Positions 5,446 through 14,929 of a stretch of DNA of 52,958 bases are shown here, piece by piece; positions within the stretch are counted from its first letter, which is position 1, and the number at the start of each line of letters is the position of its first letter. The DNA lies in IMG/VR virus record IMGVR_UViG_3300041409_000458. One strand, 5' to 3'. Source of the stretch: a virus. Taxonomy: Duplodnaviria; Heunggongvirae; Uroviricota; Caudoviricetes. The notes beneath the pieces are model-generated. The model saw only the letters and a program-made list of their open reading frames with translations, had not been told where the DNA came from and searched no databases. The position numbers were made by a program, and so were the translations under genes.

Positions 5446-5886
5446 ATGGAAATATGGAAAGATATAATAGATTTTGAAGGTCGTTATCAAGTGAGTAATC
5501 TAGGAAGACTAAAAAGTCTGCAGGGAAATTTTCCCTCTAAACGAAAAGAGAAAATATTAAAATTATCTTTAAAGAATGGATATCCTAAAACTTTGCTATG
5601 GAAAGATAGTAAAGCTACAACAGCTCGTGTACATAGAGTAGTTGCATTTGCATTCCTAGATAATCCTTATAATAAACCCAATATAAATCACAAAGATGGA
5701 AATAGAGCAAATAATGTCGTTGAAAATCTTGAATGGTGTACTCAAAAAGAAAATATTCATCATTCAAGAAATATAACAAAAAATGGGTCAGTAATATCAT
5801 TACAAAAATTAACAGTATTGTATGAAGAGAATATTGACTTAGAACTTTCAGATTTTATCAGAAAAATAATTCCTCATTTTAACTAA
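5446..5886 (+). CDS. NUMOD4-HNH homing endonuclease
   Basis: NUMOD4 signature EIWKDIIDFEGRYQVSNLGRLKSL plus HNH_3-type VHRVVAFAF...INHKDGNRANNVVENLEWCTQKEN. Confidence 0.92.
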   Translation: MEIWKDIIDFEGRYQVSNLGRLKSLQGNFPSKRKEKILKLSLKNGYPKTLLWKDSKATTARVHRVVAFAFLDNPYNKPNINHKDGNRANNVVENLEWCTQKENIHHSRNITKNGSVISLQKLTVLYEENIDLELSDFIRKIIPHFN

Positions 5887-5891
5887 AATAT

Positions 5892-5993
5892 ATGAAACAA
5901 TCAAAAACAGACATATTGAATAAACTCATAAAAGAGTTAATCAAAGAAAACAAAAGACTAACCGAATATATTTTACTCCAAAAGAAAAAATAA
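5892..5993 (+). CDS. Possible 33-aa coiled-coil peptide
   Basis: ATG-started ORF MKQSKTDILNKLIKELIKENKRLTEYILLQKKK fills the gap between the HNH gene and the next promoter. Confidence 0.4.
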   Translation: MKQSKTDILNKLIKELIKENKRLTEYILLQKKK

Positions 5994-5994
5994 A

Positions 5995-6026
5995 TTTGGT
6001 AAATACAAATAATTGTTGTATATTTG
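5995..6026 (+). promoter_or_regulatory. Bacteroidota sigma-A-type promoter for leader 1 and tRNA block 1
   Basis: TTTG(5995-5998)-N20-TATATTTG(6019-6026). Confidence 0.8.
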
Positions 6027-6030
6027 CTTT

Positions 6031-6171
6031 ATGATACTTGATACAAACATATATGGAGGATGTGGCTGTGGGAAACCAAAGCCTAAGAAAGGTTTACGCC
6101 AGTGGCATACGCCAACCTGTACACAATGTCCGTTTGGATGTAGTGGGGGTCTCTGTATACGTACTAGTTAA
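6031..6171 (+). CDS. Putative attenuator leader peptide 1 (46 aa, MILDTNIYGGCGCGKPKPKKGLRQWHTPTCTQCPFGCSGGLCIRTS)
   Basis: Translated by hand. Codons 6097-6135 (RQWHTPTCTQCPF) match all nine tRNAs of the downstream block; the 3' end overlaps the antiterminator strand. Confidence 0.75.
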   Translation: MILDTNIYGGCGCGKPKPKKGLRQWHTPTCTQCPFGCSGGLCIRTS

Positions 6172-6222
6172 AATTCGTACAGTTCTATACAAAAGACCCT
6201 CTAGGAAACTAGGGGGTTTTTA
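6145..6222 (+). terminator. Attenuator 1: alternative antiterminator and intrinsic terminator
   Basis: Terminator AGACCCTCTAG-GAAA-CTAGGGGGTTTTT (6195-6222). GGGGGTCTCTGTATA (6145-6159) can pair instead with TATACAAAAGACCCTC (6186-6201). Confidence 0.8.
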
Positions 6223-6226
6223 ATTT

Positions 6227-6299
6227 CGAGATGTTGGCTAATTGGTAAGCCACTTGCTTTGGGAGCAAGAAGATGCAGGTTCGACCCTTGTCATCTCGA
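6227..6299 (+). tRNA. trnP: tRNA-Pro(TGG)
   Basis: Cloverleaf: CGAGATG/CATCTCG acceptor, CTTGC-ttTGGga-GCAAG anticodon arm, TTCGA T-loop. Confidence 0.93.
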
Positions 6300-6305
6300 C
6301 ATAAT

Positions 6306-6379
6306 GCTTCTTATGCAGATATGGTGCTGCACCTCACTTGTAATGAGGATTAGAGAGTTTTCGAGTAACTCAAGAAGCT
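6306..6379 (+). tRNA. trnT: tRNA-Thr(TGT)
   Basis: GCTTCTT/AAGAAGC acceptor; CCTCA-ctTGTaa-TGAGG; T-arm GAGTT-ttcgagt-AACTC. Confidence 0.9.
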
Positions 6380-6407
6380 CTAAACATAAAAGCCGAAGGG
6401 TAAATAT

Positions 6408-6821
6408 ATGAATACAGATAAAAAATCTGGGCAGCTAGGTATGCCACATGGTACAGCAAATGCAAGATTGCGTAAAGCTATTATTTTCAAACTTCTAAAA
6501 GATGCAAAGTTAAACTTTTGTTTTCAATGCTCTGCAGAAATTGATAAGATTGAGACTTTATCTATTGAGCACAAAATTCCTTACTTAGACTCGCATGACC
6601 CTAAAAAATTGTTCTTTGATTTGGATAATATTGCATTTTCTCATTTAAAGTGTAATATAGATGCAAGAAGGATACCTGAGAAAATAGTGGATAAGGATGA
6701 TTTTAGAGTTAAACATGGTAGGTCTACTTATGAAAGAAGAGGATGCAGATGTGATATTTGTAAGGAAGACAAGAGAATACATAATAGTAAAAGATTTAAT
6801 AATGGTCGTATGGCTGAGTGA
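6408..6821 (+). CDS. HNH endonuclease with C-terminal Cys-rich (CRCDIC) zinc-binding element
   Basis: CFQC...SIEHKIP...DNIAFSHLKCN; stop codon lies inside the 5' end of tRNA-Cys. Confidence 0.85.
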   Translation: MNTDKKSGQLGMPHGTANARLRKAIIFKLLKDAKLNFCFQCSAEIDKIETLSIEHKIPYLDSHDPKKLFFDLDNIAFSHLKCNIDARRIPEKIVDKDDFRVKHGRSTYERRGCRCDICKEDKRIHNSKRFNNGRMAE

Positions 6822-6878
6822 ACAAAGGCACACGTCTGCAAAACGTTACAATCGTCAGTTTGAATCTGACTACGACCT
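6804..6878 (+). tRNA. trnC: tRNA-Cys(GCA)
   Basis: GGTCGTA/TACGACC acceptor; CACGT-ctGCAaa-ACGTT; T-arm GTCAG-tttgaat-CTGAC. Confidence 0.9.
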
Positions 6879-6886
6879 CAAGGTTT

Positions 6887-6946
6887 CCGGAATGAAGAAT
6901 GCCACTTGTTGAGAAGTGATGGTCAGTCCATCAGTGAAAAATCCGG
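6887..6946 (+). ncRNA. Candidate structured RNA (three-way junction), unclassified
   Basis: CCGGA/TCCGG closing stem enclosing the CACTT/AAGTG and ATGG/CCAT hairpins; sits between two tRNAs. Confidence 0.4.
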
Positions 6947-6952
6947 GTTTAT

Positions 6953-7024
6953 GGTGATGTAGCTCATCGGTAGAGCGAAGCCCTGAAGAGGCTTGCGTGG
7001 GGAGTTCGATTCTCCCTTTCACCA
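6953..7024 (+). tRNA. trnF: tRNA-Phe(GAA)
   Basis: AAGCC-ctGAAga-GGCTT; GGGAG-ttcgatt-CTCCC; acceptor has one T-T mismatch. Confidence 0.9.
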
Positions 7025-7030
7025 CATAAC

Positions 7031-7140
7031 AGCTCTTGGTCCGTGGGTGTTGAAAAACGTGATAACGGACCTCCAAAGTAGTAGTACAGCACTCAAAGAC
7101 GTACATTCACTGGATAGCCTCAGCCATAAATCGAGGCAAC
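7031..7140 (+). ncRNA. Candidate structured RNA (three hairpins, possible kissing loops), unclassified
   Basis: GGTCCGT/ACGGACC, TCCA..GTAC/GTAC..TGGA and GCCTC/GAGGC stems; loop GGGTGTT is complementary to loop AGCACTC. Confidence 0.5.
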
Positions 7141-7142
7141 AC

Positions 7143-7215
7143 ACGGGTGTAGCTCAGCTGGTAGAGCTTTGGTCTCCAAAACCAAGAGTCAGGGGTTCGA
7201 GTCCTCTCATCCGTG
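7143..7215 (+). tRNA. trnW: tRNA-Trp(CCA)
   Basis: ACGGGTG/CATCCGT; TTGGT-ctCCAaa-ACCAA; canonical D and T arms. Confidence 0.94.
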
Positions 7216-7220
7216 CATAT

Positions 7221-7291
7221 TGCTCCATGGTGTAATGGTAACATCAGACTCTTTGACAGTCAAGTTATAGGTTCGAGTCCTATTGGAGTAA
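7221..7291 (+). tRNA. trnQ: tRNA-Gln(TTG)
   Basis: TGCTCCA/TGGAGTA; AGACT-ctTTGac-AGTCA; ATAGG-ttcgagt-CCTAT. Confidence 0.92.
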
Positions 7292-7298
7292 CATATAT

Positions 7299-7369
7299 TG
7301 CGATATTGTGTAACGGTAGCACACGGGTCTCTGAAGCCCTTAGTTGGAGTTCGAATCTCTGTATCGCAA
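7299..7369 (+). tRNA. trnQ: tRNA-Gln(CTG)
   Basis: TGCGATA/TATCGCA; CGGGT-ctCTGaa-GCCCT; TGGAG-ttcgaat-CTCTG. Confidence 0.92.
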
Positions 7370-7371
7370 CT

Positions 7372-7447
7372 GTGGTATTAGCTTAGCTGGTTAAAGTATC
7401 TGATTGTGATTCAGAGGACACGGATTCGAATTCCGTATATCACCCCA
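7372..7447 (+). tRNA. trnH: tRNA-His(GTG), CCA encoded
   Basis: GTGGTAT/ATATCAC; TCTGA-ttGTGat-TCAGA; C73 discriminator followed by CCA. Confidence 0.93.
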
Positions 7448-7448
7448 T

Positions 7449-7522
7449 GCAGAATTAGTTTAATGGAAAAACACTTCGCTACGAACGAAGAGATATGTAG
7501 AGTTCGAATCTCACATTCTGCT
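7449..7522 (+). tRNA. trnR: tRNA-Arg(ACG)
   Basis: GCAGAAT/ATTCTGC; CTTCG-ctACGaa-CGAAG; T-stem has a bulged A. Confidence 0.88.
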
Positions 7523-7532
7523 CAAAAATAAA

Positions 7533-7564
7533 TTTGGTAGATAGGAATTAATTTCGTATATTTG
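7533..7564 (+). promoter_or_regulatory. Bacteroidota sigma-A-type promoter for leader 2 and tRNA block 2
   Basis: TTTG(7533)-N20-TATATTTG(7557-7564). Confidence 0.8.
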
Positions 7565-7582
7565 TATTCTAAAGCATAGAAC

Positions 7583-7705
7583 ATGATAACAGGATTAATA
7601 ATCGGTGGAATTGTGGGATTCGTAATTGGAGCACTTGTTTTCCGTAACAATGCTAAACAGGGAGAAAAAATTATAGATAAACTTAAAAAGACAGAAAGCA
7701 AATAA
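7583..7705 (+). CDS. 40-aa single-pass membrane peptide (MITGLIIGGIVGFVIGALVFRNNAKQGEKIIDKLKKTESK)
   Basis: Hydrophobic Gly-rich N-terminal helix and basic tail; TAATG overlap with leader 2. Confidence 0.7.
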   Translation: MITGLIIGGIVGFVIGALVFRNNAKQGEKIIDKLKKTESK

Positions 7706-7788
7706 TGTACAACTTAAATATGATAGTGGATAGAATGATTGGGGCGAACGAGAAATCGGCTCCGGGATTCCTATTGGCTGTCATGTAA
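7705..7788 (+). CDS. Putative attenuator leader peptide 2 (27 aa, MYNLNMIVDRMIGANEKSAPGFLLAVM)
   Basis: Starts in a TAATG overlap. Codons 7717-7755 (NMIVDRMIGANEK) cover all ten amino acids of tRNA block 2; the next codons form the antiterminator strand. Confidence 0.75.
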   Translation: MYNLNMIVDRMIGANEKSAPGFLLAVM

Positions 7789-7844
7789 TAAAAGATATTA
7801 CCACCAAAAAGAGTCCCGGAGCCCACAAAGCTTCGGGATTTTTT
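7758..7844 (+). terminator. Attenuator 2: alternative antiterminator and intrinsic terminator
   Basis: GGCTCCGGGATTC (7758-7770) pairs over 13 bp with GAGTCCCGGAGCC (7811-7823); this excludes the terminator TCCCGGAGC-ccacaaa-GCTTCGGGA-TTTTTT (7814-7844). Confidence 0.85.
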
Positions 7845-7851
7845 ATTAAAT

Positions 7852-7924
7852 ACCGTCGGAGCTTATGTGGACAAGCTGCACTCTTTTAAAGTGAGGACAA
7901 AGGGTTCGAATCCCTTGGGCGGTA
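7852..7924 (+). tRNA. trnK: tRNA-Lys(TTT)
   Basis: GCACT-ctTTTaa-AGTGA; AAGGG-ttcgaat-CCCTT; G-G mismatch at acceptor pair 7. Confidence 0.87.
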
Positions 7925-7927
7925 CAA

Positions 7928-8000
7928 GCTTCTATAGCTCAATAGGTAGAGTAATGAGCTCTTAACTCATGGGTTTTCGGTTCGAGTCCGAATGGAAGCA
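7928..8000 (+). tRNA. trnK: tRNA-Lys(CTT)
   Basis: GCTTCTA/TGGAAGC; ATGAG-ctCTTaa-CTCAT. Confidence 0.93.
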
Positions 8001-8016
8001 CAAAAGTTCTTAAAAA

Positions 8017-8048
8017 TTTGGTAGATTAAGAGTTTTTTCGTATATTTG
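8017..8048 (+). promoter_or_regulatory. Bacteroidota-type promoter upstream of HNH gene
   Basis: TTTG(8017)-N20-TATATTTG(8041-8048); ATG 4 nt later. Confidence 0.75.
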
Positions 8049-8052
8049 TTCT

Positions 8053-8400
8053 ATGAAGAATCCAACAAAAGAACAAACAAAGGAGTGGAATAGAACATAC
8101 TATCTTAAAAACAAAGAGAAAAGGAGAGCACAGTATAACAGAACCAGAAAAGAAATAGCTGAATGGTTCAGAGAATACAAGAAAACTCTCAGTTGTAAAA
8201 TCTGTGGTTTTGCTCATCCTACAGCCTTATCGTTCCATCATAGGAAAGGTGAGAAAAAATTAGGAGAGGTCTCTGTGATGGCATGGGATGGAGCAAGAAA
8301 GAAATTAGAGAATGAGATTGCAAAATGTGATGTATTATGTCATAATTGTCATGCCATACATCATTATGATGAGAGAAATAAAGATGCCTCTTTAGCTTAG
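8053..8400 (+). CDS. HNH endonuclease
   Basis: CKICG...ALSFHH...EIAKCDVLCHNCHAIHH; stop codon lies inside the 5' end of tRNA-Val. Confidence 0.9.
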   Translation: MKNPTKEQTKEWNRTYYLKNKEKRRAQYNRTRKEIAEWFREYKKTLSCKICGFAHPTALSFHHRKGEKKLGEVSVMAWDGARKKLENEIAKCDVLCHNCHAIHHYDERNKDASLA

Positions 8401-8460
8401 TTGGTTTAAAGCGTCTGCCTTACAAGCAGAAGACCATCCGTTCGAATCGGATAAGAGGTA
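8386..8460 (+). tRNA. trnV: tRNA-Val(TAC)
   Basis: GCCTCTT/AAGAGGT; TCTGC-ctTACaa-GCAGA. Confidence 0.93.
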
Positions 8461-8465
8461 CAGAT

Positions 8466-8539
8466 GGAGCCATCGTTTAATGGATTAGGACCTTTGTTTC
8501 CTAAACAAAGATGTGTCAGTTCGAGTCTGACTGGCTCTA
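8466..8539 (+). tRNA. trnR: tRNA-Arg(CCT)
   Basis: GGAGCCA/TGGCTCT; TTTGT-ttCCTaa-ACAAA. Confidence 0.93.
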
Positions 8540-8546
8540 CAAATAT

Positions 8547-8619
8547 GCACCCGTCGTTCAATGGATTAGGACAACTGCCTTCTAAGCAGTTTATAGCAGT
8601 TCGAATCTGCTCAGGTGTA
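8547..8619 (+). tRNA. trnR: tRNA-Arg(TCT)
   Basis: GCACCCG/CAGGTGT (one mismatch); ACTGC-ctTCTaa-GCAGT. Confidence 0.9.
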
Positions 8620-8662
8620 CAAGGTCAGTTAATGTTTCTGCGTGGAGTTAAAAAACATATTC

Positions 8663-8736
8663 GTCTGAGAAGCTTAAGTGGTATAAGCTACTGCCTGTTA
8701 AGCAGAAGATAGGAGGTTCGAGCCCTCTCTTGGACG
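8663..8736 (+). tRNA. trnN: tRNA-Asn(GTT)
   Basis: GTCTGAG/CTTGGAC, G discriminator; ACTGC-ctGTTaa-GCAGA. Confidence 0.88.
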
Positions 8737-8744
8737 CAATTATA

Positions 8745-8820
8745 CGCAGGGTAGGGAAGTGGTCATATCCTTCAAGGCTCATAACCTTCGAGAACGCTGG
8801 TTCGAATCCAGCCCCTGCAT
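8745..8820 (+). tRNA. trnfM: tRNA-Met(CAT), initiator-like
   Basis: C1-A72 mismatch (CGCAGGG/CCCTGCA) typical of fMet tRNA; ctCATaa loop; only two G-C pairs adjoin the anticodon loop. Confidence 0.82.
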
Positions 8821-8826
8821 CTAAAT

Positions 8827-8900
8827 TGGGTATTAGAATAGTGGTCTAATTCACTACTCTCATAAGGTAGCATTCACCAGTTCGAATCTGGTATACCCAA
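8827..8900 (+). tRNA. trnM: tRNA(CAT): elongator Met or lysidine-modified Ile2
   Basis: TGGGTAT/ATACCCA; CTACT-ctCATaa-GGTAG; Met versus Ile2 cannot be resolved by eye. Confidence 0.85.
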
Positions 8901-8918
8901 CAATTGTTCTAAAATATA

Positions 8919-8950
8919 TTTGGAATTGTGAGAAATATTTGGTATATTTG
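8919..8950 (+). promoter_or_regulatory. Bacteroidota-type promoter upstream of HTH-HNH and YkuK genes
   Basis: TTTG(8919)-N20-TATATTTG(8943-8950). Confidence 0.75.
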
Positions 8951-8967
8951 TATTAAATATTCGAACA

Positions 8968-9558
8968 ATGAAATTAGATAGGGATGAAGTATATAAACTT
9001 TTAGATGAAGGGAAGAAACCAGTAGAAGTTGCAAGAATCTTAGGTTGTGTAAGATCTGTTATATCTTACTATAAATCTCAAAGAAATTCACCTAAAAGAA
9101 AAGGAAACAATATACCTTTAACTATAAAACAAAAGGGAAAAATTAATGAACTTTATATTGAAGGAAAAGCTTTTAATGAGATAAGAGAAATAACAGGCTT
9201 TTCACTTCAAACAATTAGAAAATATCTTATAGTTCCAAAAAGATTAAAACAAAAGAAAAGAAGAACAATTTATTTTCTTAAATGGAGACTTCGTAAGAAA
9301 GCAATTCTTGTTGATTATAAAGGTGGAAAGTGTGAAGATTGTGGATATGATGAATGTATAGAAGCTCTACATTTTCATCATCTTAATCCTAAAGAAAAAG
9401 AGTTTAATGTTTGTGGAAAGTCAGTATCTATTGAAAAACTAAAAAAGGAAGCAGATAAATGTGTACTTTTGTGTGCTAATTGTCACATTAAGAGACATAA
9501 TTGTAAAACCTGTACAGAAGCCTTAGAAGAAGGTAAAAAATTTAGAGATAGAGAATGA
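8968..9558 (+). CDS. HNH endonuclease with two N-terminal HTH-like segments
   Basis: KPVEVARILGCVRSVISYY and AFNEIREITGFSLQTIRKY helices; CEDCGY...ALHFHH...KCVLLCANCHIKRH. Confidence 0.9.
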   Translation: MKLDRDEVYKLLDEGKKPVEVARILGCVRSVISYYKSQRNSPKRKGNNIPLTIKQKGKINELYIEGKAFNEIREITGFSLQTIRKYLIVPKRLKQKKRRTIYFLKWRLRKKAILVDYKGGKCEDCGYDECIEALHFHHLNPKEKEFNVCGKSVSIEKLKKEADKCVLLCANCHIKRHNCKTCTEALEEGKKFRDRE

Positions 9559-10031
9559 CAAAATATTTCAGAAAAAAGGATGGTGAGTTAGTCAACATAG
9601 TTGAACACACTTTAGAGCAGATTCAGCAGAATCCGAATGTCAAGATATACATTGGAACGGACAGTCAAGACGAAGGTCCATGCAGTGAATATGCAACTTG
9701 TATAGTATACAGATATGGCAGAAACGGAGCACACTTCATCTACTCAAGAGAGTCAGTTCCAAGGATTTGGGATATGTTCACTCGTCTGTACACAGAAGGT
9801 ACACGTACCATTGAAGTTGCAGAATTGATAAGAGCAGAAATTCTTTCTATAAATTTTGAAGCACTTGAGTTCGATTACGCTGATGTTAAGAAGACTCTTT
9901 CCACTCGTGTAGTGTCAGCTTTGAGAGGGTGGGTAAAAGGAATGGGTTTGAATGCTTCTTTCAAAGGTGGAGAGAAAATAGCAACAAAGTCTGCTGACCA
10001 CGTATGTAGACACAAAGAAATGTATAAATAA
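9555..10031 (+). CDS. RNase H-like YkuK (DUF458) family protein
   Basis: VKIYIGTDSQ...YATCIVYRYGRNGAH...RLYTE...EVAE...K...ATKSADH pattern matches the YkuK family as I recall it. Confidence 0.8.
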   Translation: MTKYFRKKDGELVNIVEHTLEQIQQNPNVKIYIGTDSQDEGPCSEYATCIVYRYGRNGAHFIYSRESVPRIWDMFTRLYTEGTRTIEVAELIRAEILSINFEALEFDYADVKKTLSTRVVSALRGWVKGMGLNASFKGGEKIATKSADHVCRHKEMYK

Positions 10032-10035
10032 ACAT

Positions 10036-10083
10036 GGCGAGTTGAAAGGGAATCCACAGTGGGGACACTGCCCCTCGCCTCCA
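10036..10083 (+). ncRNA. Candidate 48-nt structured RNA ending in T-CCA
   Basis: GGCGAG/CTCGCC, GGG/CCC and CAGTG-GGGA-CACTG stacked helices with two 6-nt 5' bulges. Confidence 0.45.
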
Positions 10084-10084
10084 C

Positions 10085-10157
10085 GCAGTAGTAGCTCATC
10101 TGGTAGAGCACTATCCTTCCAAGTTAGGGGCGGCAGGTTCGAGTCCTGTCTACTGCA
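10085..10157 (+). tRNA. trnG: tRNA-Gly(TCC)
   Basis: GCAGTAG/CTACTGC; ctTCCaa loop; T-T mismatch in the anticodon stem. Confidence 0.9.
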
Positions 10158-10162
10158 CAATT

Positions 10163-10234
10163 GCAGGTGTAGCACAACGGTTAGTGCATCGGCTTGCCAA
10201 GTCGAGGATAAGAGTTCGATTCTCTTTATCTGCT
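10163..10234 (+). tRNA. trnG: tRNA-Gly(GCC)
   Basis: GCAGGTG/TATCTGC; TCGGC-ttGCCaa-GTCGA; U discriminator. Confidence 0.93.
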
Positions 10235-10239
10235 CTTAA

Positions 10240-10313
10240 CATGCGTTCGACAAGTGGTCTAAGTCGTCATCCTTTCAAGGTGATATTCACGGGTTCAAAT
10301 CCCGTACGCATGA
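10240..10313 (+). tRNA. trnE: tRNA-Glu(TTC)
   Basis: CATGCGT/ACGCATG; TCATC-ctTTCaa-GGTGA. Confidence 0.92.
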
Positions 10314-10314
10314 C

Positions 10315-10430
10315 AATGTAGTAGCTAATGCTGATATAGTTATTCGAAGGTCAGAGGATTTTCCAGCATTTCCAATCTGACACTAGCCAGAGATGTGATG
10401 GGCACTTCGACAATGACTACTACATTACCA
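10315..10430 (+). ncRNA. Candidate ~116-nt structured RNA ending in A-CCA, unclassified
   Basis: 10-bp terminal stem AATGTAGTAG/CTACTACATT, internal TCGAAG/CTTCGA and GTCAGA/TCTGAC stems; flanked directly by tRNAs. Confidence 0.55.
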
Positions 10431-10503
10431 CGAGGTATGGTTGAATGGTTACAATGCCGGATTGTCAATCCGTGCGGTACGGGTTCGAATCCCGTTATCT
10501 CGG
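10431..10503 (+). tRNA. trnD: tRNA-Asp(GTC)
   Basis: CGAGGTA/TATCTCG, G discriminator; CCGGA-ttGTCaa-TCCGT. Confidence 0.92.
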
Positions 10504-10508
10504 CAAAT

Positions 10509-10582
10509 GCATCTATAGCTCAACTGGTCGGAGCAGGACGCTTATATCGTCAAGGTTTTCAGTTCGAATCTGAATAGATGTA
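10509..10582 (+). tRNA. trnI: tRNA-Ile(TAT)
   Basis: GCATCTA/TAGATGT; GGACG-ctTATat-CGTCA; UAU anticodon is rare in bacteria. Confidence 0.88.
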
Positions 10583-10583
10583 C

Positions 10584-10886
10584 ATGAAAAGCAAAGATTT
10601 TGCAAGAACAAGAACAAGAAATAGAAACTTTGTTAGGGACTATTTATCTAAGCATCCTTGCACTGATTGTGGGAACAATAACATTGTTGTATTGGACTTC
10701 GATCATGTGAAAGGAGAAAAGAAAGCAAATATCTCCAAGATGGTCTCTAATGGAACTTCTTTAGTTTCTCTCTTGAGGGAAATAGAGAAATGTGAAGTTA
10801 GATGTGCCAATTGTCACAGAATTGTTACACATCAGAGAAGATTGCAGGAAAGACCTAAAGAAGGAATTGATTATTTTGAATATTAA
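10584..10886 (+). CDS. HNH endonuclease between the two tRNA-Ile genes
   Basis: CTDCG...LDFDHV...EIEKCEVRCANCHRIVT; ATG at 10584 preferred because 10578 lies inside the tRNA. Confidence 0.88.
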   Translation: MKSKDFARTRTRNRNFVRDYLSKHPCTDCGNNNIVVLDFDHVKGEKKANISKMVSNGTSLVSLLREIEKCEVRCANCHRIVTHQRRLQERPKEGIDYFEY

Positions 10887-10887
10887 T

Positions 10888-10960
10888 GCAGGTATAGCTC
10901 AGTTGGTAGAGCAACGTCCTGATACGACGTAGGTCCAAGGCTCGAATCCTTGTATCTGCA
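10888..10960 (+). tRNA. trnI: tRNA-Ile(GAT)
   Basis: GCAGGTA/TATCTGC; ACGTC-ctGATac-GACGT; T-loop CTCGAAT (C instead of T54). Confidence 0.9.
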
Positions 10961-11022
10961 CAAGAAATAACCTCTGGTATAGAAGCACACCATTGCGTGA
11001 TTGGTTAAGTTATTTCGTCCAT

Positions 11023-11095
11023 GGGGGTGAAGCACAAGTGGACGTGCAACAGCTTTGCAAGCTGAAGGTTGAGGGTTCGAAGCCCTTCATCTCCA
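11023..11095 (+). tRNA. trnA: tRNA-Ala(TGC)
   Basis: GGGGGTG/CATCTCC with the G3-U70 Ala identity pair; ttTGCaa loop. Confidence 0.93.
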
Positions 11096-11146
11096 CAATT
11101 GTAGAAAAAATACCACATTATTGTAGAAGAAATACAACATTAAAAA

Positions 11147-11178
11147 TTTGGTTTTTTCTAAAATATTTTTTATATTGT
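11147..11178 (+). promoter_or_regulatory. Bacteroidota-type promoter (degenerate -7 element)
   Basis: TTTG(11147)-N20-TATATTGT. Confidence 0.6.
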
Positions 11179-11197
11179 ACTTATAAAACATTTAATT

Positions 11198-11383
11198 ATG
11201 TCAATACTTACAATTTTAGTCGTACTGGTAGTAGCAGGAGTTGCTTTATACTTAATCAACAGGTTCATACCTATGGATGGTAAAGTGAAGACAATTCTTA
11301 ATTGGGTTGTTATAGGTGCTTTAGTCCTTTGGTTACTTAAAGGGTTAGGTATCTTATCATTTCTAAGTAATGTACATGTGTAA
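11198..11383 (+). CDS. Small two-helix membrane protein (Thivi_2564-like)
   Basis: 61 aa; ILVVLVVAGVALYLINRFIPMDGKVKTILNWVV pattern. Confidence 0.75.
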   Translation: MSILTILVVLVVAGVALYLINRFIPMDGKVKTILNWVVIGALVLWLLKGLGILSFLSNVHV

Positions 11384-11394
11384 AATATAGTACA

Positions 11395-11715
11395 ATGGCA
11401 TTCATAAACAAGACAATTGTAAACATCTATGTATCTCCTGATATGAAGGTACTGGATATTATTAACTCTAAACTTGATAAAATCATGGCAGAACAGACAG
11501 AATTAGCAGCTCAGCTGGAAGCATTAAGCACTCAGCTTGACAAGGTTGCAGGTGAAATCATGGCTAAAGTAGATGCTCTTGAAGCAGCCTTTGATGCAGC
11601 CGATGACGTAACACCAGAAGTTCAAGCAGCCTTTGATGCTCTTAAAGCAAAAGTTCAGGTACTGGATGACCTAAATCCAGACACCCCTGAGACAACTGAA
11701 GCTCCTGAAGCTTAA
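11395..11715 (+). CDS. Acidic Ala-rich coiled-coil protein
   Basis: 106 aa with heptad-like ELAAQLEALSTQLDKVAGEI...; followed by a terminator. Confidence 0.75.
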   Translation: MAFINKTIVNIYVSPDMKVLDIINSKLDKIMAEQTELAAQLEALSTQLDKVAGEIMAKVDALEAAFDAADDVTPEVQAAFDALKAKVQVLDDLNPDTPETTEAPEA

Positions 11716-11720
11716 ATTTT

Positions 11721-11746
11721 AACCCCAGTTTTCACTGGGGTTTTTT
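11721..11746 (+). terminator. Rho-independent terminator
   Basis: AACCCCAG-ttttca-CTGGGGTT followed by TTTT. Confidence 0.85.
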
Positions 11747-11761
11747 CATTTTAAAAATTAA

Positions 11762-11793
11762 TTTGGTTTTCAGCAAAAAAGTCCGTACCTTTG
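11762..11793 (+). promoter_or_regulatory. Bacteroidota-type promoter
   Basis: TTTG(11762)-N20-TACCTTTG(11786-11793). Confidence 0.72.
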
Positions 11794-11883
11794 AGTTGTT
11801 ATTTTGTATTTGCATCCGGATTATGTCCGAGACCAGTATAATGCTGGGAAGATGTTGGTACTTAAAAGAAGTAACGCAAATAT

Positions 11884-12678
11884 ATGTTCACATCAACAGT
11901 AGCTCCCACCACGGGAGAGGCATTTATTGCCGTAAAGAAAAACAGGGTAAGGTCATATCCAACAAACCTAGCCAACATTAACAACAGTGTTTATCTCTCT
12001 GACAAACAAGAGTTTGAGATTGAGCTTAACAACCCTTCCACATCCACAAAACTTGCCAAAATCTCCATTAATGGTAAGCAAATTTCATCATCAGGTATAG
12101 TTTTAAAGCCGGGACAGAGGGCTTATATCGAGAGATATATTGATACTCCTCGAAAGTTCCAGTTTGAAACCTATGTAGTAGACAACAATCCATCAGTCAC
12201 AGCTGCAATTCAGCAAAATGGTCTGATAAAGGTATCTTTCTATGATGAACATGTTCCACCAGCACCCGTTTATTTTGACTGGAATTCTATGGTAGGTTCT
12301 TCTGCTCAGAATGTAAATTATCTGAATCAGAGGGACTCAAACATACGTTCCATGGATTTTATGCATGATGGTGCTGCAACCATGTCTATGTTCTCCTCAA
12401 GAGTAGGAGATAATGCAGCATTTGACCGTGTAAAGAAGTCAATCCCTACACAAAAGGAAACAGGTAGAATTGAACAAGGAGATGTCTCTAACCAGACATT
12501 CACTAACTATTCAGGAAGCTTCAATAGCTGGAGTACAAATACAGTGAAAATTAAGTTACTTCCTTTCTCTGAAAAACCTCTAGAGGTAAATGAGATATCT
12601 CAGTATTGTACAGAATGTGGGACTAAGAACAAAAGTGGTAAATACAAGTTCTGTCCAACCTGTGGAAACAAGTTCTAA
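11884..12678 (+). CDS. Hypothetical protein with beta-rich N-terminal domain and C-terminal zinc ribbon
   Basis: 264 aa; CTECG...KFCPTCG at the C-terminus. Confidence 0.8.
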   Translation: MFTSTVAPTTGEAFIAVKKNRVRSYPTNLANINNSVYLSDKQEFEIELNNPSTSTKLAKISINGKQISSSGIVLKPGQRAYIERYIDTPRKFQFETYVVDNNPSVTAAIQQNGLIKVSFYDEHVPPAPVYFDWNSMVGSSAQNVNYLNQRDSNIRSMDFMHDGAATMSMFSSRVGDNAAFDRVKKSIPTQKETGRIEQGDVSNQTFTNYSGSFNSWSTNTVKIKLLPFSEKPLEVNEISQYCTECGTKNKSGKYKFCPTCGNKF

Positions 12679-12684
12679 AATAAA

Positions 12685-12716
12685 TTTGGTTATTTCAAAA
12701 TACTTTCGTATATTTG
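12685..12716 (+). promoter_or_regulatory. Bacteroidota sigma-A-type promoter for leader 3 and tRNA block 3
   Basis: TTTG(12685)-N20-TATATTTG(12709-12716). Confidence 0.8.
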
Positions 12717-12758
12717 TATTCCAATCAGGGTTTGACCAAGTAGGCAACCTAAAAACTG

Positions 12759-13115
12759 ATGGATAAACATATGAAAAGTCAAATTAAAGTAGATTTCACC
12801 GATAGAGGTGAAGGAAAAGGTTTAGAGCCAGTTATTGCTATTAAGTTAATAGACAGTGATGATGTAAGAGATGGTCTTTTAAAGACATTTTTTCAATCTT
12901 TGGGAGGAGAGAGTTCTTGGTTATCAGTTTCCTTTGACCACCACATAATAAATGGTGAAAGTGACAAGACAACCTATATTAGAGTTTTTCCGATTCAATC
13001 ACACGAATTAGCTGAAACTGCAGAAAGAATAGATAGCAGGATATCAGGCAGAATAGGTTCTACAGGTCCTAATAACTGTAATCCAATAACAAATTCAACA
13101 GGTTACAAATTATAA
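12759..13115 (+). CDS. Hypothetical protein, translationally coupled to leader 3
   Basis: 118-aa ORF; TAATG overlap at 13113-13117. Confidence 0.7.
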   Translation: MDKHMKSQIKVDFTDRGEGKGLEPVIAIKLIDSDDVRDGLLKTFFQSLGGESSWLSVSFDHHIINGESDKTTYIRVFPIQSHELAETAERIDSRISGRIGSTGPNNCNPITNSTGYKL

Positions 13116-13186
13116 TGAAAACAATAACATCATATTATTCCAGTTTATCACTCTTGATTAAAAGTCGAGCTGGAAGAACTATGTAA
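13115..13186 (+). CDS. Putative attenuator leader peptide 3 (23 aa, MKTITSYYSSLSLLIKSRAGRTM)
   Basis: Codons 13130-13156 (SYYSSLSLL) match the downstream Leu/Ser/Ser/Tyr tRNAs; the 3' codons form the antiterminator strand. Confidence 0.75.
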   Translation: MKTITSYYSSLSLLIKSRAGRTM

Positions 13187-13238
13187 AGAAGAAATTTCTT
13201 TTTTCACCCTCCAGCAGCAATGTTCGGAGGGTTTTTTT
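13169..13238 (+). terminator. Attenuator 3: alternative antiterminator and intrinsic terminator
   Basis: Terminator ACCCTCC-AGCA-gcaa-TGTT-c-GGAGGGT-TTTTTT (13206-13238); GCTGGA(A)G (13169-13176) can pair instead with CTCCAGC (13209-13215). Confidence 0.75.
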
Positions 13239-13242
13239 ATTT

Positions 13243-13327
13243 GGCCCTTTGGTGGAATGGTAGACACGAGGGACTTAAAATCCCTTGCTCAGAAATGGGC
13301 GTGTGGGTTCGAATCCCACCTTGGTCA
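13243..13327 (+). tRNA. trnL: tRNA-Leu(TAA), acceptor stem imperfect
   Basis: AGGGA-ctTAAaa-TCCCT, long variable arm, GTGGG-ttcgaat-CCCAC; acceptor GGCCCTT/CTTGGTC has three inner mismatches. Confidence 0.78.
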
Positions 13328-13336
13328 CAATTATAA

Positions 13337-13422
13337 GGAAGGTCCCAAAGGAGAGGTACACTGTCTTGAAAACAGCTAGGTCGGTGATGAGCCACGTAAG
13401 AGTTCGAGTCTCTTACCTTCCG
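13337..13422 (+). tRNA. trnS: tRNA-Ser(TGA)
   Basis: GGAAGGT/ACCTTCC, G discriminator; ctTGAaa loop; long variable arm. Confidence 0.88.
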
Positions 13423-13427
13423 CACAA

Positions 13428-13512
13428 GGAGAGTTGCCAGAGTGGCTATTGGAGCAGTTTGCTAAACTGTGGTCGTTTATTCGGCCCATGAGTTCGAATC
13501 TCATACTCTCCG
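13428..13512 (+). tRNA. trnS: tRNA-Ser(GCT)
   Basis: GGAGAGT/ACTCTCC; GCAGT-ttGCTaa-ACTGT; long variable arm. Confidence 0.92.
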
Positions 13513-13518
13513 CTACCT

Positions 13519-13589
13519 GAGTCAGAGGTCAGGGCAACCAGCAATGACTGTAAATCATAGGCACGAGAGTTCGATTCTCTCCTAACCCA
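13519..13589 (+). tRNA. trnY: Atypical or degenerate tRNA-Tyr(GTA)
   Basis: ATGA-ctGTAaa-TCAT arm and GAGAG-ttcgatt-CTCTC T-arm are clear; short D region, no long variable arm, two acceptor mismatches; 5' end uncertain (13519 or 13526). Confidence 0.6.
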
Positions 13590-13941
13590 CTTTTTCTCTG
13601 TGATACTTCTGTCTGTAGTATCTTCTACCATTACCTTTAGAGGTACTATGTCCTTTCGTCAATGAATGACAGTTTGGACAAAGAAGAGTTAAATTATTTT
13701 CAGAATGATTCATTGAATTTCCGTCTATATGTTCTACCTCTAGAGGAATACTATTGGTAGTAGGATTTAGTTTAGACCATTCACATAGAGTACATTTACT
13801 CTCATACTTTTCAAATAGGTATTTTCTTACATGGTCAGAAACCTTTCCATGACCTTGTAAATCTCCTTTCCCACCTGTTACTTCTCCATCTTTCCACTTT
13901 TGGATATATTCCTCATATCCATATCTTTTTAGTTTTTTCAT
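13582..13941 (-). CDS. HNH endonuclease (only supported minus-strand gene)
   Basis: CTLCEW...PLEVEHIDGNSMNHSENNLTLLCPNCHSLT; its last codons and stop overlap the tRNA-Tyr 3' acceptor strand. Confidence 0.9.
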   Translation of the reverse strand: MKKLKRYGYEEYIQKWKDGEVTGGKGDLQGHGKVSDHVRKYLFEKYESKCTLCEWSKLNPTTNSIPLEVEHIDGNSMNHSENNLTLLCPNCHSLTKGHSTSKGNGRRYYRQKYHREKVG

Positions 13942-13945
13942 ACTA

Positions 13946-13977
13946 CTAATATACGAAGAATAATTAACAAATCCAAA
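13946..13977 (-). promoter_or_regulatory. Bacteroidota-type promoter for the minus-strand HNH gene
   Basis: Reverse complement reads TTTG-N20-TATATTAG, with ATG 4 nt downstream. Confidence 0.65.
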
Positions 13978-14089
13978 TAACGTTCACTGGACGTTAGATG
14001 TTTTGTTTGTTAACACTATCTTAACAATAAATAATAGGTTTTGCTTGCAATTAGCGGTAGATTTGTGTATCTTAATTAAAAACGATAAC

Positions 14090-14929
14090 ATGATAACTAG
14101 AGCACAAGTCAAAACATTCCTATTAACTAAACGGGGATACATTAAGAAATCTCCAGCCAATGTAGCTGGAGCTATCTGGTTAACACAACCTCACACAGGA
14201 GCAAAGAAGACGACATCTGAGATAACGAAAGAGTTAACCTTAATAAGAGATGTCCAGACTACATTACGTTCAGCATCATCCTATATTGCCTCTAAGGAGG
14301 AAACAGACATGATAGACATGTATGATAGGATTATGGAACAGAAGAATCGTCCTAAAACCAAGCTTTTCTTTGATATTGAAGTATCTCCGGATATAGTATT
14401 ATCATGGGGTATTGGAAGGAAAGTATCATTAAGTCATGATTCAATTATTCAGGAAAGAGCAATTATTTGTATATGCTGGAAGTGGGCCGGAGATGATAAA
14501 GTTTACTCTCTAAAGTGGAACAATGGGTGCGATAAAGAGATATTACAGAAATTCGCTAAGATAGTAGATTCAGCAGATGAGCTTATAGCTCAAAATGGAG
14601 ACAATTTTGACATTAAATGGGTTAGGACTAGGTGTATCTATCACAATATCCCTATAAGCCCTAAATTCAACTCTATTGATACCCTCAAGATGGCAAGGCA
14701 AGGGTTCCGTTTCAATGCTAATAGGCTTGATTACATGGGAAAATTCCTTGGATTTGGAGGTAAAATAGAAACTAATTATGATATGTGGAAGGATATTCTC
14801 CTTAGAAATGACAATAAAGCAATGAAATTAATGGTGGATTACTGTAAGGAAGACGTTGTTCTCCTTGAAAAAGTCTATAACAAACTACAGCAATATTGCC
14901 CAATAAAGAAGTTTCGATATAAACTCTAG
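14090..14929 (+). CDS. DnaQ/RNase H-like (DEDD, YprB-type) 3'-5' exonuclease
   Basis: LFFDIEVSPD (ExoI), AQNGDNFDIKW (ExoII), YCKEDVVLLEKVY (ExoIII); ATG at 14090 preferred to the TTG start at 14003. Confidence 0.87.
   Translation: MITRAQVKTFLLTKRGYIKKSPANVAGAIWLTQPHTGAKKTTSEITKELTLIRDVQTTLRSASSYIASKEETDMIDMYDRIMEQKNRPKTKLFFDIEVSPDIVLSWGIGRKVSLSHDSIIQERAIICICWKWAGDDKVYSLKWNNGCDKEILQKFAKIVDSADELIAQNGDNFDIKWVRTRCIYHNIPISPKFNSIDTLKMARQGFRFNANRLDYMGKFLGFGGKIETNYDMWKDILLRNDNKAMKLMVDYCKEDVVLLEKVYNKLQQYCPIKKFRYKL

Follow-up and report, generated by a model that had tools for sequence, protein, structure and literature searches.

What could switch on a phage tRNA array, and in response to what? The question is raised by a 52,958-nucleotide (nt) stretch of DNA (the window), part of the 146.7-kb virus record IMGVR_UViG_3300041409_000458 in IMG/VR, in which three blocks of tRNA genes each lie just downstream of an intrinsic terminator and a short open reading frame (ORF) written in the codons of the tRNAs that follow. 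The purpose of phage tRNAs has been debated for fifty years, codon compensation being set against the replacement of tRNAs destroyed by defense systems, and to our knowledge the regulation of phage tRNA arrays is essentially unknown. The short ORFs (the leaders), their codon match, the terminators, and a set of alternative RNA pairings are present at all three blocks, and conservation and covariation of these elements are seen among related contigs. On the basis of these features, we consider it likely that the locus holds three trp-type ribosome-mediated transcription attenuators, each of which would act in cis and open its tRNA block when the codons of that block are read slowly.

Leaders, terminators, and codon content

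A preceding sequence-only reading of the window had counted 28 tRNAs in three blocks, each placed behind a promoter, a leader, and mutually exclusive hairpins. The blocks were as stated (Table 1); of the tRNAs, 26 passed the ARAGORN defaults (6227-13513, every one on the plus strand), and 25 of these 26 also passed the Rfam gathering score. The other two, Ser(UGA) at 13337-13423 (24 bits) and Tyr(GUA) at 13519-13590 (21.5 bits), are sub-threshold and surfaced only when the ARAGORN thresholds were lowered; the default-threshold tRNAs of block 3 are Leu and Ser(GCU), at 13242-13513. Because the orthologous Tyr, Ser, and Ala genes of several relatives likewise required lowered thresholds, we take the two genes to be real but unusual. 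Block 2 comprises Lys (two), Val, Arg(CCU), Arg(UCU), Asn, Met (two), Gly (two), Glu, Asp, Ile(UAU), Ile(GAU), and Ala, and is interrupted by HNH-type ORFs and one RNaseH-like ORF.

Each leader stop is followed after 21-26 nt by a terminator whose core hairpin (-12.6 to -14.2 kcal/mol) runs into 5-7 T residues, and 11-14 nt separate the end of each terminator from the first tRNA of its block. This gap is too small to hold a promoter, so the first tRNAs of each block need read-through. A role of the hairpins solely as terminators of the upstream genes was considered and rejected, since it would leave those first tRNAs without a promoter. A scan for the Bacteroidota-type promoter pattern (TTTG, a spacer, then TAnnTTTG) returned seven matches against 0.96 expected, and six of the seven fall in the tRNA region. 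The proposed order of promoter, leader, hairpins, and tRNAs holds directly for leader 1; leaders 2 and 3 instead follow ORFs of 40 and 118 amino acids (aa), respectively.

The three ORFs and their uninterrupted sensor runs of 13, 13, and 9 codons were found with exactly the coordinates and sequences that had been reported. Each run had been said to contain only, and all of, the amino acids of its own block, and this proved exact for the eight amino acids of block 1, the ten of block 2, and the three (Leu, Ser, and Tyr) of block 3; the three leaders combined cover all 20 amino acids. The agreement is far above chance. Among 105,912 codon positions scanned in six frames, a single 13-codon segment equals the block 1 residue set and a single one equals the block 2 set, and these are leaders 1 and 2; three 9-codon segments equal the Leu/Ser/Tyr set. 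Computed analytically with the window's own protein composition, the per-position chance was 7.8e-10, 9.4e-6, and 2.5e-7 for runs 1, 2, and 3, respectively. We also defined a core independently of the blocks, as the 12 codons immediately upstream of region 2 (the antiterminator 5' strand, whose first paired base was located with RNAduplex), with Arg counted by codon box. Across 23 leaders from 10 loci, the fraction of this core belonging to the leader's own set was 0.89, 0.93, and 0.79 for leaders 1, 2, and 3, and the off-diagonal fractions were at most 0.14.

Codon choice had been proposed to track the isoacceptors as well, and it does so in part. Arg is written as CGC or CGT in 5/5 Arg-containing leader 1 sequences and as AGA in 8/8 leader 2 sequences, a split that mirrors the placing of tRNA-Arg(ACG) in block 1 and of tRNA-Arg(UCU/CCU) in block 2; in the window's long ORFs, CGN makes up 26% of the Arg codons. 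Both ATA and ATT are present in every leader 2, matching the two Ile isoacceptors, and every leader 3 contains TCN and AGT, TTR and CTN, and TAT. The Arg box split, the ATA/ATT pair, and the two Ser boxes thus stand. The correspondence does not extend to CTC, which lacks a Leu(UAG) tRNA in the window, or to CAA/CAG and GGA/GGC/GGG, whose use does not in all relatives go with the presence of a second Gln or Gly tRNA. The runs contain many codons that the long ORFs of the phage seldom use (CGC, 7/532 Arg codons; ACG, 38/866 Thr; CCG, 26/538 Pro; GGG, 51/833 Gly; CTC, 45/1039 Leu). Such codons could sharpen sensitivity, or they could merely reflect the G+C demand of the helices.

Relatives were located by means of a conserved downstream exonuclease-like gene (14087-14926), with loci taken from IMG/VR and, through protein homologues of this anchor, further loci from Logan, JGI, and NCBI assemblies. 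Nine contigs (L001, L003, L004, L137, L138, L140, L143, L145/L146, and L148), with anchor proteins 60-79% identical to that of the window, carry the same array in a constant block order: Pro..Arg(ACG), Lys..Ala, Leu..Tyr. A leader ORF of 19-30 aa is found at every retrievable block, and a terminator lies 11-16 nt before the first tRNA of each block, barring insertion of a homing-endonuclease gene. The leader 1 runs of relatives read QRHTWPTFTQCTT, QRTHTQWFTCPQCPCT, RHTWQPFIQCPT, HTWFTPFTQCQHC, HTWFTCTQCPT, and HAWPIFTQCPT; those of leader 2 read MIADNGDVRGIEKNG, MIVDNGARGIEKDG, MIVRNILGADEK, NISMNKKVEGRDAI, and MIVDNIVGREK; and those of leader 3 are permutations of S, Y, and L with 10-12 residues. 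Residue order and terminator sequence drift among these relatives and set membership stays, so the expectation that leader codons would track the tRNA set in homologous loci was borne out: composition is kept across the nine with the order changed. The substitutions are chemically non-conservative (P, F, C, T, Q, and W are swapped), yet remain within the set, a pattern expected of selection on codon identity but not of selection on a folded peptide.

Four further contigs (L136, L139, L142, and L144) end at the tRNA array and yielded no leaders. No tRNA array was found at this position in the more distant L147, L149, and L150 or in most of L005-L075. INPHARED gave no close relative, blastn of the whole region returning only scattered tRNA and HNH matches. 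Exact-pattern scans of IMG/VR with the first conserved leader segment gave 59 matches, of which two contigs are the known relatives and the rest are probably chance; the second conserved segment matched solely the two known contigs.

Alternative pairings and a predicted switch

The minimum free energy (MFE) folds of the three window leaders each contain the terminator (3:4) and a 1:2 hairpin in which sensor codons take part. When the terminator 3' arm was removed from the fold, the 5' arm paired with a segment of the ORF tail (2:3). The mutually exclusive antiterminator and terminator hairpins of the sequence-only reading were thereby recovered as alternative pairings, with the terminator 5' arm used by both. 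For leader 1, region 2 lies in the ORF tail and region 3 is the terminator 5' arm plus its flank. The distance from the end of the run to the antiterminator 5' strand, given beforehand as 2-12 nt, measured 8, 2, and 11 nt, and the stop codons (6169-6171, 7786-7788, and 13184-13186), which had been placed near the antiterminator apex, lie inside the antiterminator loop in all three leaders, 9-15 nt past region 2; the loop of leader 3 also holds a small A/U hairpin. In 19 leaders, region 2 starts -5 to +11 nt from the end of the run, within the ORF tail, and the 2:3 duplexes range from -9 to -28 kcal/mol with z scores as low as -6.8. The 1:2 hairpin occurs in the MFE folds of most homologues.

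Pairing is maintained as the sequences diverge. Over eight leader 2 sequences, the antiterminator 2:3 had 87.5% of cells paired, compared to 16-55% for slid controls, and 6/12 pairs were changed on both sides, a number that 0/500 shuffles reached. The terminator 3:4, which uses the same 5'-arm columns, had 89.6% of cells paired (slid controls, 23-64%) and 5/9 pairs changed on both sides (reached by 2/500 shuffles). The co-change of regions 2 and 3 can be seen in leader 2 by comparing GGCTCCGGG/CCCGGAGCC with GCAGGGTTT/AAACCCTC. A single arm of leader 2 thus covaries with two alternative partners, which is the signature of a switch. For leader 3, nine sequences gave an antiterminator with 94.4% of cells paired (slid controls, 24-57%) and 2/6 pairs changed on both sides (reached by 25/500 shuffles), for instance GCTGGA/TCCAGC versus AGTCAGGG/CCCTGACT. 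The 1:2 hairpin of leader 2 had 68.8% of cells paired in eight homologues, compared to 39-51% for slid controls, with no excess of double changes and without significance.

Two models of ribosome position were used. In the first, the ribosome footprint was merely set unpaired and the equilibrium fold was calculated; with the full terminator, only leader 2 among the window leaders flips, its terminator probability dropping from 0.99 to 0.00 for stalls at codons 4-13 (L4 to A13), with values of 0.01 at N14 and 0.60 at N3. With the 3' arm removed, the contrast in this model was blurred, as it still permitted helices to form around the ribosome; hence a downstream-only model was used instead, in which the transcript ends in the terminator loop and such helices are forbidden. 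According to the latter model, a ribosome stalled in the run leaves the terminator 5' arm sequestered with a mean probability of 0.77 (0.83 when the last three run codons are omitted), whereas a ribosome in the tail or at the stop gives a value of about 0.20, and this pattern was predicted for 22 of the 23 leaders. For the leaders of the window, the modelled drop in sequestration falls exactly at the last codons of each run. The leader stop is, in the model, so positioned that a ribosome finishing the ORF would prevent the antiterminator.

The geometry of the start sites bears on how a ribosome would be loaded. The -7 box of F. johnsoniae promoters occupies positions -12 to -5 (PMC6847099). 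The first ATG lies 4 nt past the -7 box in six leader 1 loci (the window, L001, L004, L137, L145, and L148), this ATG being that of leader 1 itself or of its conserved upstream micro-ORF, and the same spacing holds for the first ATG of leader 2 in L148; in four relatives the leader 3 ATG is 7 nt past the -7 box. From the 4-nt spacing, the RNA is predicted to start at the A of the ATG, that is, as a leaderless mRNA. Where another ORF intervenes, the leader ATG lies -1 to +19 nt from the stop of that ORF. These distances would fit leaderless or coupled initiation in a host group that does without Shine-Dalgarno sites, and initiation of either kind would load a ribosome on the emerging RNA, as attenuation needs.

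We propose that host RNA polymerase would transcribe each cassette from its Bacteroidota-type promoter and that a ribosome would translate the short leader. With all run codons decoded fast, the ribosome would enter the ORF tail or reach the stop, where it would cover region 2 or sit in the antiterminator loop; the terminator would then form just ahead of the first tRNA and transcription would end. With a cognate aminoacyl-tRNA scarce, the ribosome would stall at any codon of the run and hold region 1, region 2 would pair with the terminator 5' arm, and polymerase would read into the tRNA block, by which the phage would top up the tRNA set whose decoding is slow. As the run is written in the codons of the downstream tRNAs, each leader would work as an OR-gate that takes 3 to 10 amino acids as inputs and has negative feedback. 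In the broader reading taken up below, such a controller would measure decoding speed and switch on the tRNA set that the host pool fails to supply; possible triggers are attack by anticodon nucleases, decay of host tRNAs, and the codon demand of late genes. Translation of the leaders, the termination and read-through just outlined, and a signal that comes from the supply of tRNA and not of amino acids are inferred from the arrangement. Induction would thus be expected upon tRNA shortage, and the same switch would answer amino-acid starvation too.

Weighing the proposed attenuators against other explanations

A number of observations weigh against the attenuators as proposed. At equilibrium, the terminators of leaders 1 and 3 are favored (P at least 0.96) even with a ribosome in the run, so the switch would have to rest on kinetics; trp likewise has a 3:4 helix that is more stable than its 2:3 helix and depends on timing. 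A further requirement would be that transcription and translation are coupled tightly enough in the Bacteroidota host. The antiterminator is weak in leader 1 of L001 and L145 (z scores of -0.9 and -1.7, respectively), and conservation of the 1:2 helix is only moderate. Within block 2, 13 of the 15 tRNAs could escape attenuator 2 by way of the promoter matches at 8017 and 8919; the 8919-type promoter and the RNaseH-like gene are kept in relatives, and transcription from the gene's own promoter would enter the second half of the block independently of the attenuator. The codon match has its exceptions: CTC is kept in leader 3 of the window, yet no Leu(UAG) tRNA is encoded there; Arg is missing from leader 1 runs in L140, L145, and L148, although L140 and L145 do carry tRNA-Arg(ACG); one or two foreign codons are present in a few leaders, with Ile or Ala intruding in L137 and L145; and leader 2 of L148 has no Ala despite the tRNA-Ala downstream. 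Finally, the leaders devote only 1-3 codons to each amino acid, unlike the tandem repeats that predominate in classical leaders, and their sensitivity is therefore uncertain.

The same attenuator hardware might take another input, namely amino-acid starvation or the general translation state of the host, with the cassettes serving as sensors of timing or physiology and the tRNAs as one output among others. A stalled ribosome is blind to whether a tRNA is missing or uncharged, the leaders jointly span all 20 amino acids, and the read-through transcripts include protein-coding ORFs (HNH and others), all of which speak for such a sensor. It would have no need, however, for leaders partitioned so as to mirror their tRNA blocks, for the division of Arg into CGY and AGA by block, or for the different partition mirrored in an unrelated phage (described below), and extra tRNA is no remedy for a lack of amino acids; we judge this input unlikely. 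Somewhat less probable still is the possibility that the hairpins are leaky terminators or insulators that fix a low tRNA dose, the ORFs being functional micro-peptides or translation-coupling devices. The leader 1 peptides do have a partly ordered core (HTW..FTQCPT) and tails rich in Cys and Gly, the YGCGCG peptide and the 40-aa hydrophobic peptide upstream are conserved at the peptide level, and equilibrium folds of leaders 1 and 3 always favor the terminator. The Cys/Gly/Glu-rich nature of the tails follows from their being encoded by the G-rich region 2, and functional peptides leave unexplained the three separate matches of residue set to tRNA set, the non-conservative substitutions within sets, the covariation of region 2 with the terminator arm, and the ending of the run exactly where a modelled stall stops being productive. 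A Cys-rich leader 1 peptide as the sole cause of conservation was rejected, as it fails for leaders 2 and 3 and for the covariation.

As far as sequence statistics reach, we assign hardly any weight to a chance match or an artifact of run boundaries drawn post hoc. The boundaries were originally set by block membership, but leaders 1 and 2 are the only 13-codon segments in six frames equal to the sets of blocks 1 and 2, and the structure-defined core gave the same result in the 23 leaders from 10 loci.

The sequence-only reading had also asked whether leader codons co-vary with the downstream tRNA content in other phage arrays, and an instance was found in the unrelated 635-kb phage LR745206.1, which has two cassettes with a partition different from that of the window and matching leaders. 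Its cassette 1 consists of a promoter, a leader containing ..YESYYEE.., and a terminator whose 5' arm pairs to the ORF tail, followed by tRNAs for Tyr, Glu, Glu, Glu, Tyr, Glu, and Tyr; cassette 2 has a leader containing ..ISIAVIGNGAGAI.., a terminator, and then tRNAs for Ile, Gly, Met, Gly, and Ala. By the criteria applied, no terminator-gated block was found among the 12 tRNAs of Bacteroides phage DAC17 (L152), and no leader was found upstream of the 31 tRNAs of L061, so the design is not universal. That Bacteroidota phages hold a codon-resolved feedback controller of their own tRNA supply, recurring in unrelated lineages as a general and undescribed class, is a broader claim that we would put at about even.

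Neighboring features and known systems

The features of the locus are collected in Table 1. Since the neighborhood of the window contains crAss-family ring, capsid, and giant polymerase-type genes, we assign the phage to the crAss-like group.

Table 1. Leaders, predicted RNA elements, promoters, tRNA blocks, and associated genes of the window
Feature	Coordinates	Strand	Details
Promoter P1	5995..6026	+	Pattern scan; leader 1 ATG begins 4 nt past the -7 box
Leader ORF 1	6031..6171	+	46 aa; sensor run RQWHTPTCTQCPF at 6097-6135
Leader 1 hairpin 1:2	6115..6150	+	Later sensor codons and ORF tail; MFE fold, z -3.3
Leader 1 antiterminator 2:3	6144..6202	+	Region 2 (6144-6157) with region 3 (6189-6202); RNAduplex -14.8 kcal/mol, z -3.2
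Intrinsic terminator 1	6192..6221	+	Core stem 6197-6216, then TTTTT; tRNA-Pro starts at 6227
tRNA block 1	6227..7523	+	9 tRNAs: Pro, Thr, Cys, Phe, Trp, Gln(UUG), Gln(CUG), His, Arg(ACG)
HNH gene inside block 1	6408-6821		
Promoter P2	7533..7564	+	Pattern scan
Hydrophobic micro-ORF	7583..7705	+	40 aa; stop overlaps leader 2 start (TAATG)
Leader ORF 2	7705..7788	+	27 aa; sensor run NMIVDRMIGANEK at 7717-7755
Leader 2 hairpin 1:2	7718..7786	+	Sensor codons and ORF tail; MFE fold, z -5.3
Leader 2 antiterminator 2:3	7759..7822	+	7759-7770 with 7811-7822, 12 bp; RNAduplex -23.9 kcal/mol, z -6.4
Intrinsic terminator 2	7814..7844	+	Stem 7814-7838, then TTTTTT; tRNA-Lys starts at 7852
tRNA block 2	7852..11096	+	15 tRNAs
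Internal promoter match	8017..8048	+	Pattern scan; before ORF 8053-8400
Internal promoter match	8919..8950	+	Pattern scan; before ORFs 8968-9558 and 9555-10031 (RNaseH-like PF04308)
Terminator closing the block 2 transcription unit	11721..11742	+	
Promoter P3	12685..12716	+	Pattern scan; one mismatch to the search pattern
118-aa ORF	12759..13115	+	No Pfam match; stop overlaps leader 3 start (TAATG)
Leader ORF 3	13115..13186	+	23 aa; sensor run SYYSSLSLL at 13130-13156
Leader 3 hairpin 1:2	13138..13175	+	13138-13146 with 13167-13175; MFE fold, z -4.3
Leader 3 antiterminator core 2:3	13169..13215	+	13169-13174 with 13210-13215; RNAduplex -11.2 kcal/mol, z -1.9
Intrinsic terminator 3	13207..13238	+	Stem 13207-13231, then TTTTTTT; tRNA-Leu starts at 13242
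tRNA block 3	13242..13590	+	Leu(UAA), Ser(UGA)-like, Ser(GCU), Tyr(GUA)-like

Several tRNAs of these phages are unusual. The Tyr(GUA) D-arm is shortened in part of the clade (window, 13519-13590; L001, 9617; L138, 2563; L143, 4239; L148, 9529), and in several members the gene scores too low for ARAGORN and Rfam at default settings; its conservation makes it probable that this tRNA is functional, though atypical. In L140, an Rfam-passing tRNA at 2626-2700 (45.8 bits) has an eight-base anticodon loop, for which ARAGORN gives the four-base anticodon ttca, and is possibly frameshift-suppressor-like or aberrant. Outside the window, at the other end of the record, are three more tRNAs (G000:C1:244-318, 5956-6028, and 6306-6381) with the identities Arg(CCG), an amber-reading suppressor with a CTA anticodon, and Cys(GCA); all three are without a leader/terminator cassette, and the suppressor is a hint that TAG codons are read through or recoded at some site in the phage. 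Two long non-tRNA spacers inside the arrays, at 7031-7140 and 10315-10430, had no Rfam match.

Mobile and accessory genes accompany the blocks. In L003 (4000-4075), L004 (3226-3300), and L001 (8600-8650), a 5' fragment of the first tRNA lies directly behind the terminator and is followed by a promoter, an HNH gene, and then the intact tRNA, from which it appears that homing-endonuclease insertions duplicated part of the target tRNA and carried their own promoters. An RNaseH-like PF04308 gene with its own promoter lies between the Met and Gly tRNAs (window, 8919-10031; L137, 5166-5678; L004, from 6192; L143, 1763-2273) and may be tied to tRNA processing.

Small ORFs accompany the leaders. A micro-ORF of 23-25 aa begins 4 nt past the -7 box of P1 (window, 6031-6096; L001, 7036-7107; L137, 2242-2319; L145, 4707-4784) and encodes the motif Y/F-G-(G)-C-G-C-G-(G)-K and, after it, a tail rich in Pro, Lys, and Val; relatives have it as an ORF of its own upstream of leader 1, whereas in the window the two are fused in frame. 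Its synonymous differences suggest that the peptide sequence itself is under conservation, and our guess at its role is Pro-rich slowing or ribosome loading for leader 1. Ahead of leader 2 is a hydrophobic micro-protein of 36-40 aa (MI.GLII.G.VGF.VGALVFRNNAK..; window, 7583-7705; L145, 6311-6421; also L146), which is missing from L003, L004, L137, and L143. An ORF of 101-118 aa without a Pfam match precedes leader 3 in the window (12759-13115) and in L137 (7982-8338). Its homologue in L145 (5988-6293) is situated ahead of the 36-aa ORF, in the interval that separates the promoter from leader 2, as if the gene travels with the cassettes.

If the attenuators function as proposed, tRNA supply in these phages would be demand-driven, and the question of phage tRNA function would become directly testable. 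The reach of leader-peptide attenuation would grow to include tRNA genes in addition to amino-acid and synthetase genes, as many as ten sensed amino acids per leader in place of one to three, and Bacteroidota-type hosts with initiation that does not use Shine-Dalgarno sites. The promoter-leader-terminator cassettes could also act as natural reporters of decoding capacity in gut Bacteroidota.

A cmscan search of 5500-14200 at E values up to 0.1 returned only tRNAs and weak unrelated matches, with none to the Rfam leader families (Trp_leader, His_leader, Thr_leader, Leu_leader, and Phe_leader), to the T-box (RF00230), or to another cis-regulatory family. Full-text literature searches, incomplete in coverage, yielded no published account of leader/attenuator or decoding-speed control of phage tRNA genes. 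Large phage tRNA sets can replace host tRNAs that are cleaved or depleted in infection (PMC10264068, eLife 2023; PMC11555353, Nat Commun 2024); these two papers appear to address tRNA function, not transcriptional control.

Among known regulators, the T-box leaders of Gram-positive aminoacyl-tRNA synthetase and amino-acid genes resemble the cassettes in that the state of a specific tRNA is read out by a terminator/antiterminator switch, but no ribosome is involved in the T-box, which binds uncharged tRNA directly by means of a specifier codon and the T-box sequence, whereas a translated ORF is predicted here. The pheST leader also places a component of the decoding apparatus under stalling at cognate codons, with feedback on charged tRNA; it senses one amino acid and has a protein product, whereas the tRNA itself is the product here and the loop would be direct. 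The enterobacterial ilvGMEDA (Leu/Val/Ile) and thr (Thr/Ile) leaders share the multi-amino-acid OR logic. In those leaders the sensed amino acids are two or three in number, related, and each repeated many times, in contrast to the up to ten unrelated amino acids, present almost once each and listing the downstream tRNA identities, that are found here. A close structural likeness is to the Escherichia coli trp attenuator (trpL, RF00513), which has a promoter-proximal short ORF with regulatory codons in region 1, exclusive 1:2, 2:3, and 3:4 helices (1:2 being a candidate helix in the cassettes), an intrinsic terminator just before the first regulated gene, and a terminator thermodynamically stronger than the antiterminator, making the switch kinetic. 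The cassettes differ from trp in regulating tRNA genes instead of biosynthetic enzymes, in sensing 3-10 amino acids at 1-3 codons each instead of a tandem pair of one, and in belonging to a phage with a Bacteroidota-type promoter and a probably leaderless or coupled start, with no similarity in sequence or covariance model. The sequence evidence supports the presence of the structural features of the trp-type attenuator family, less clearly for the 1:2 helix, except for the type of target gene, the first regulated genes being tRNAs and not the enzyme or synthetase genes of trp-, his-, and ilv-type attenuators.

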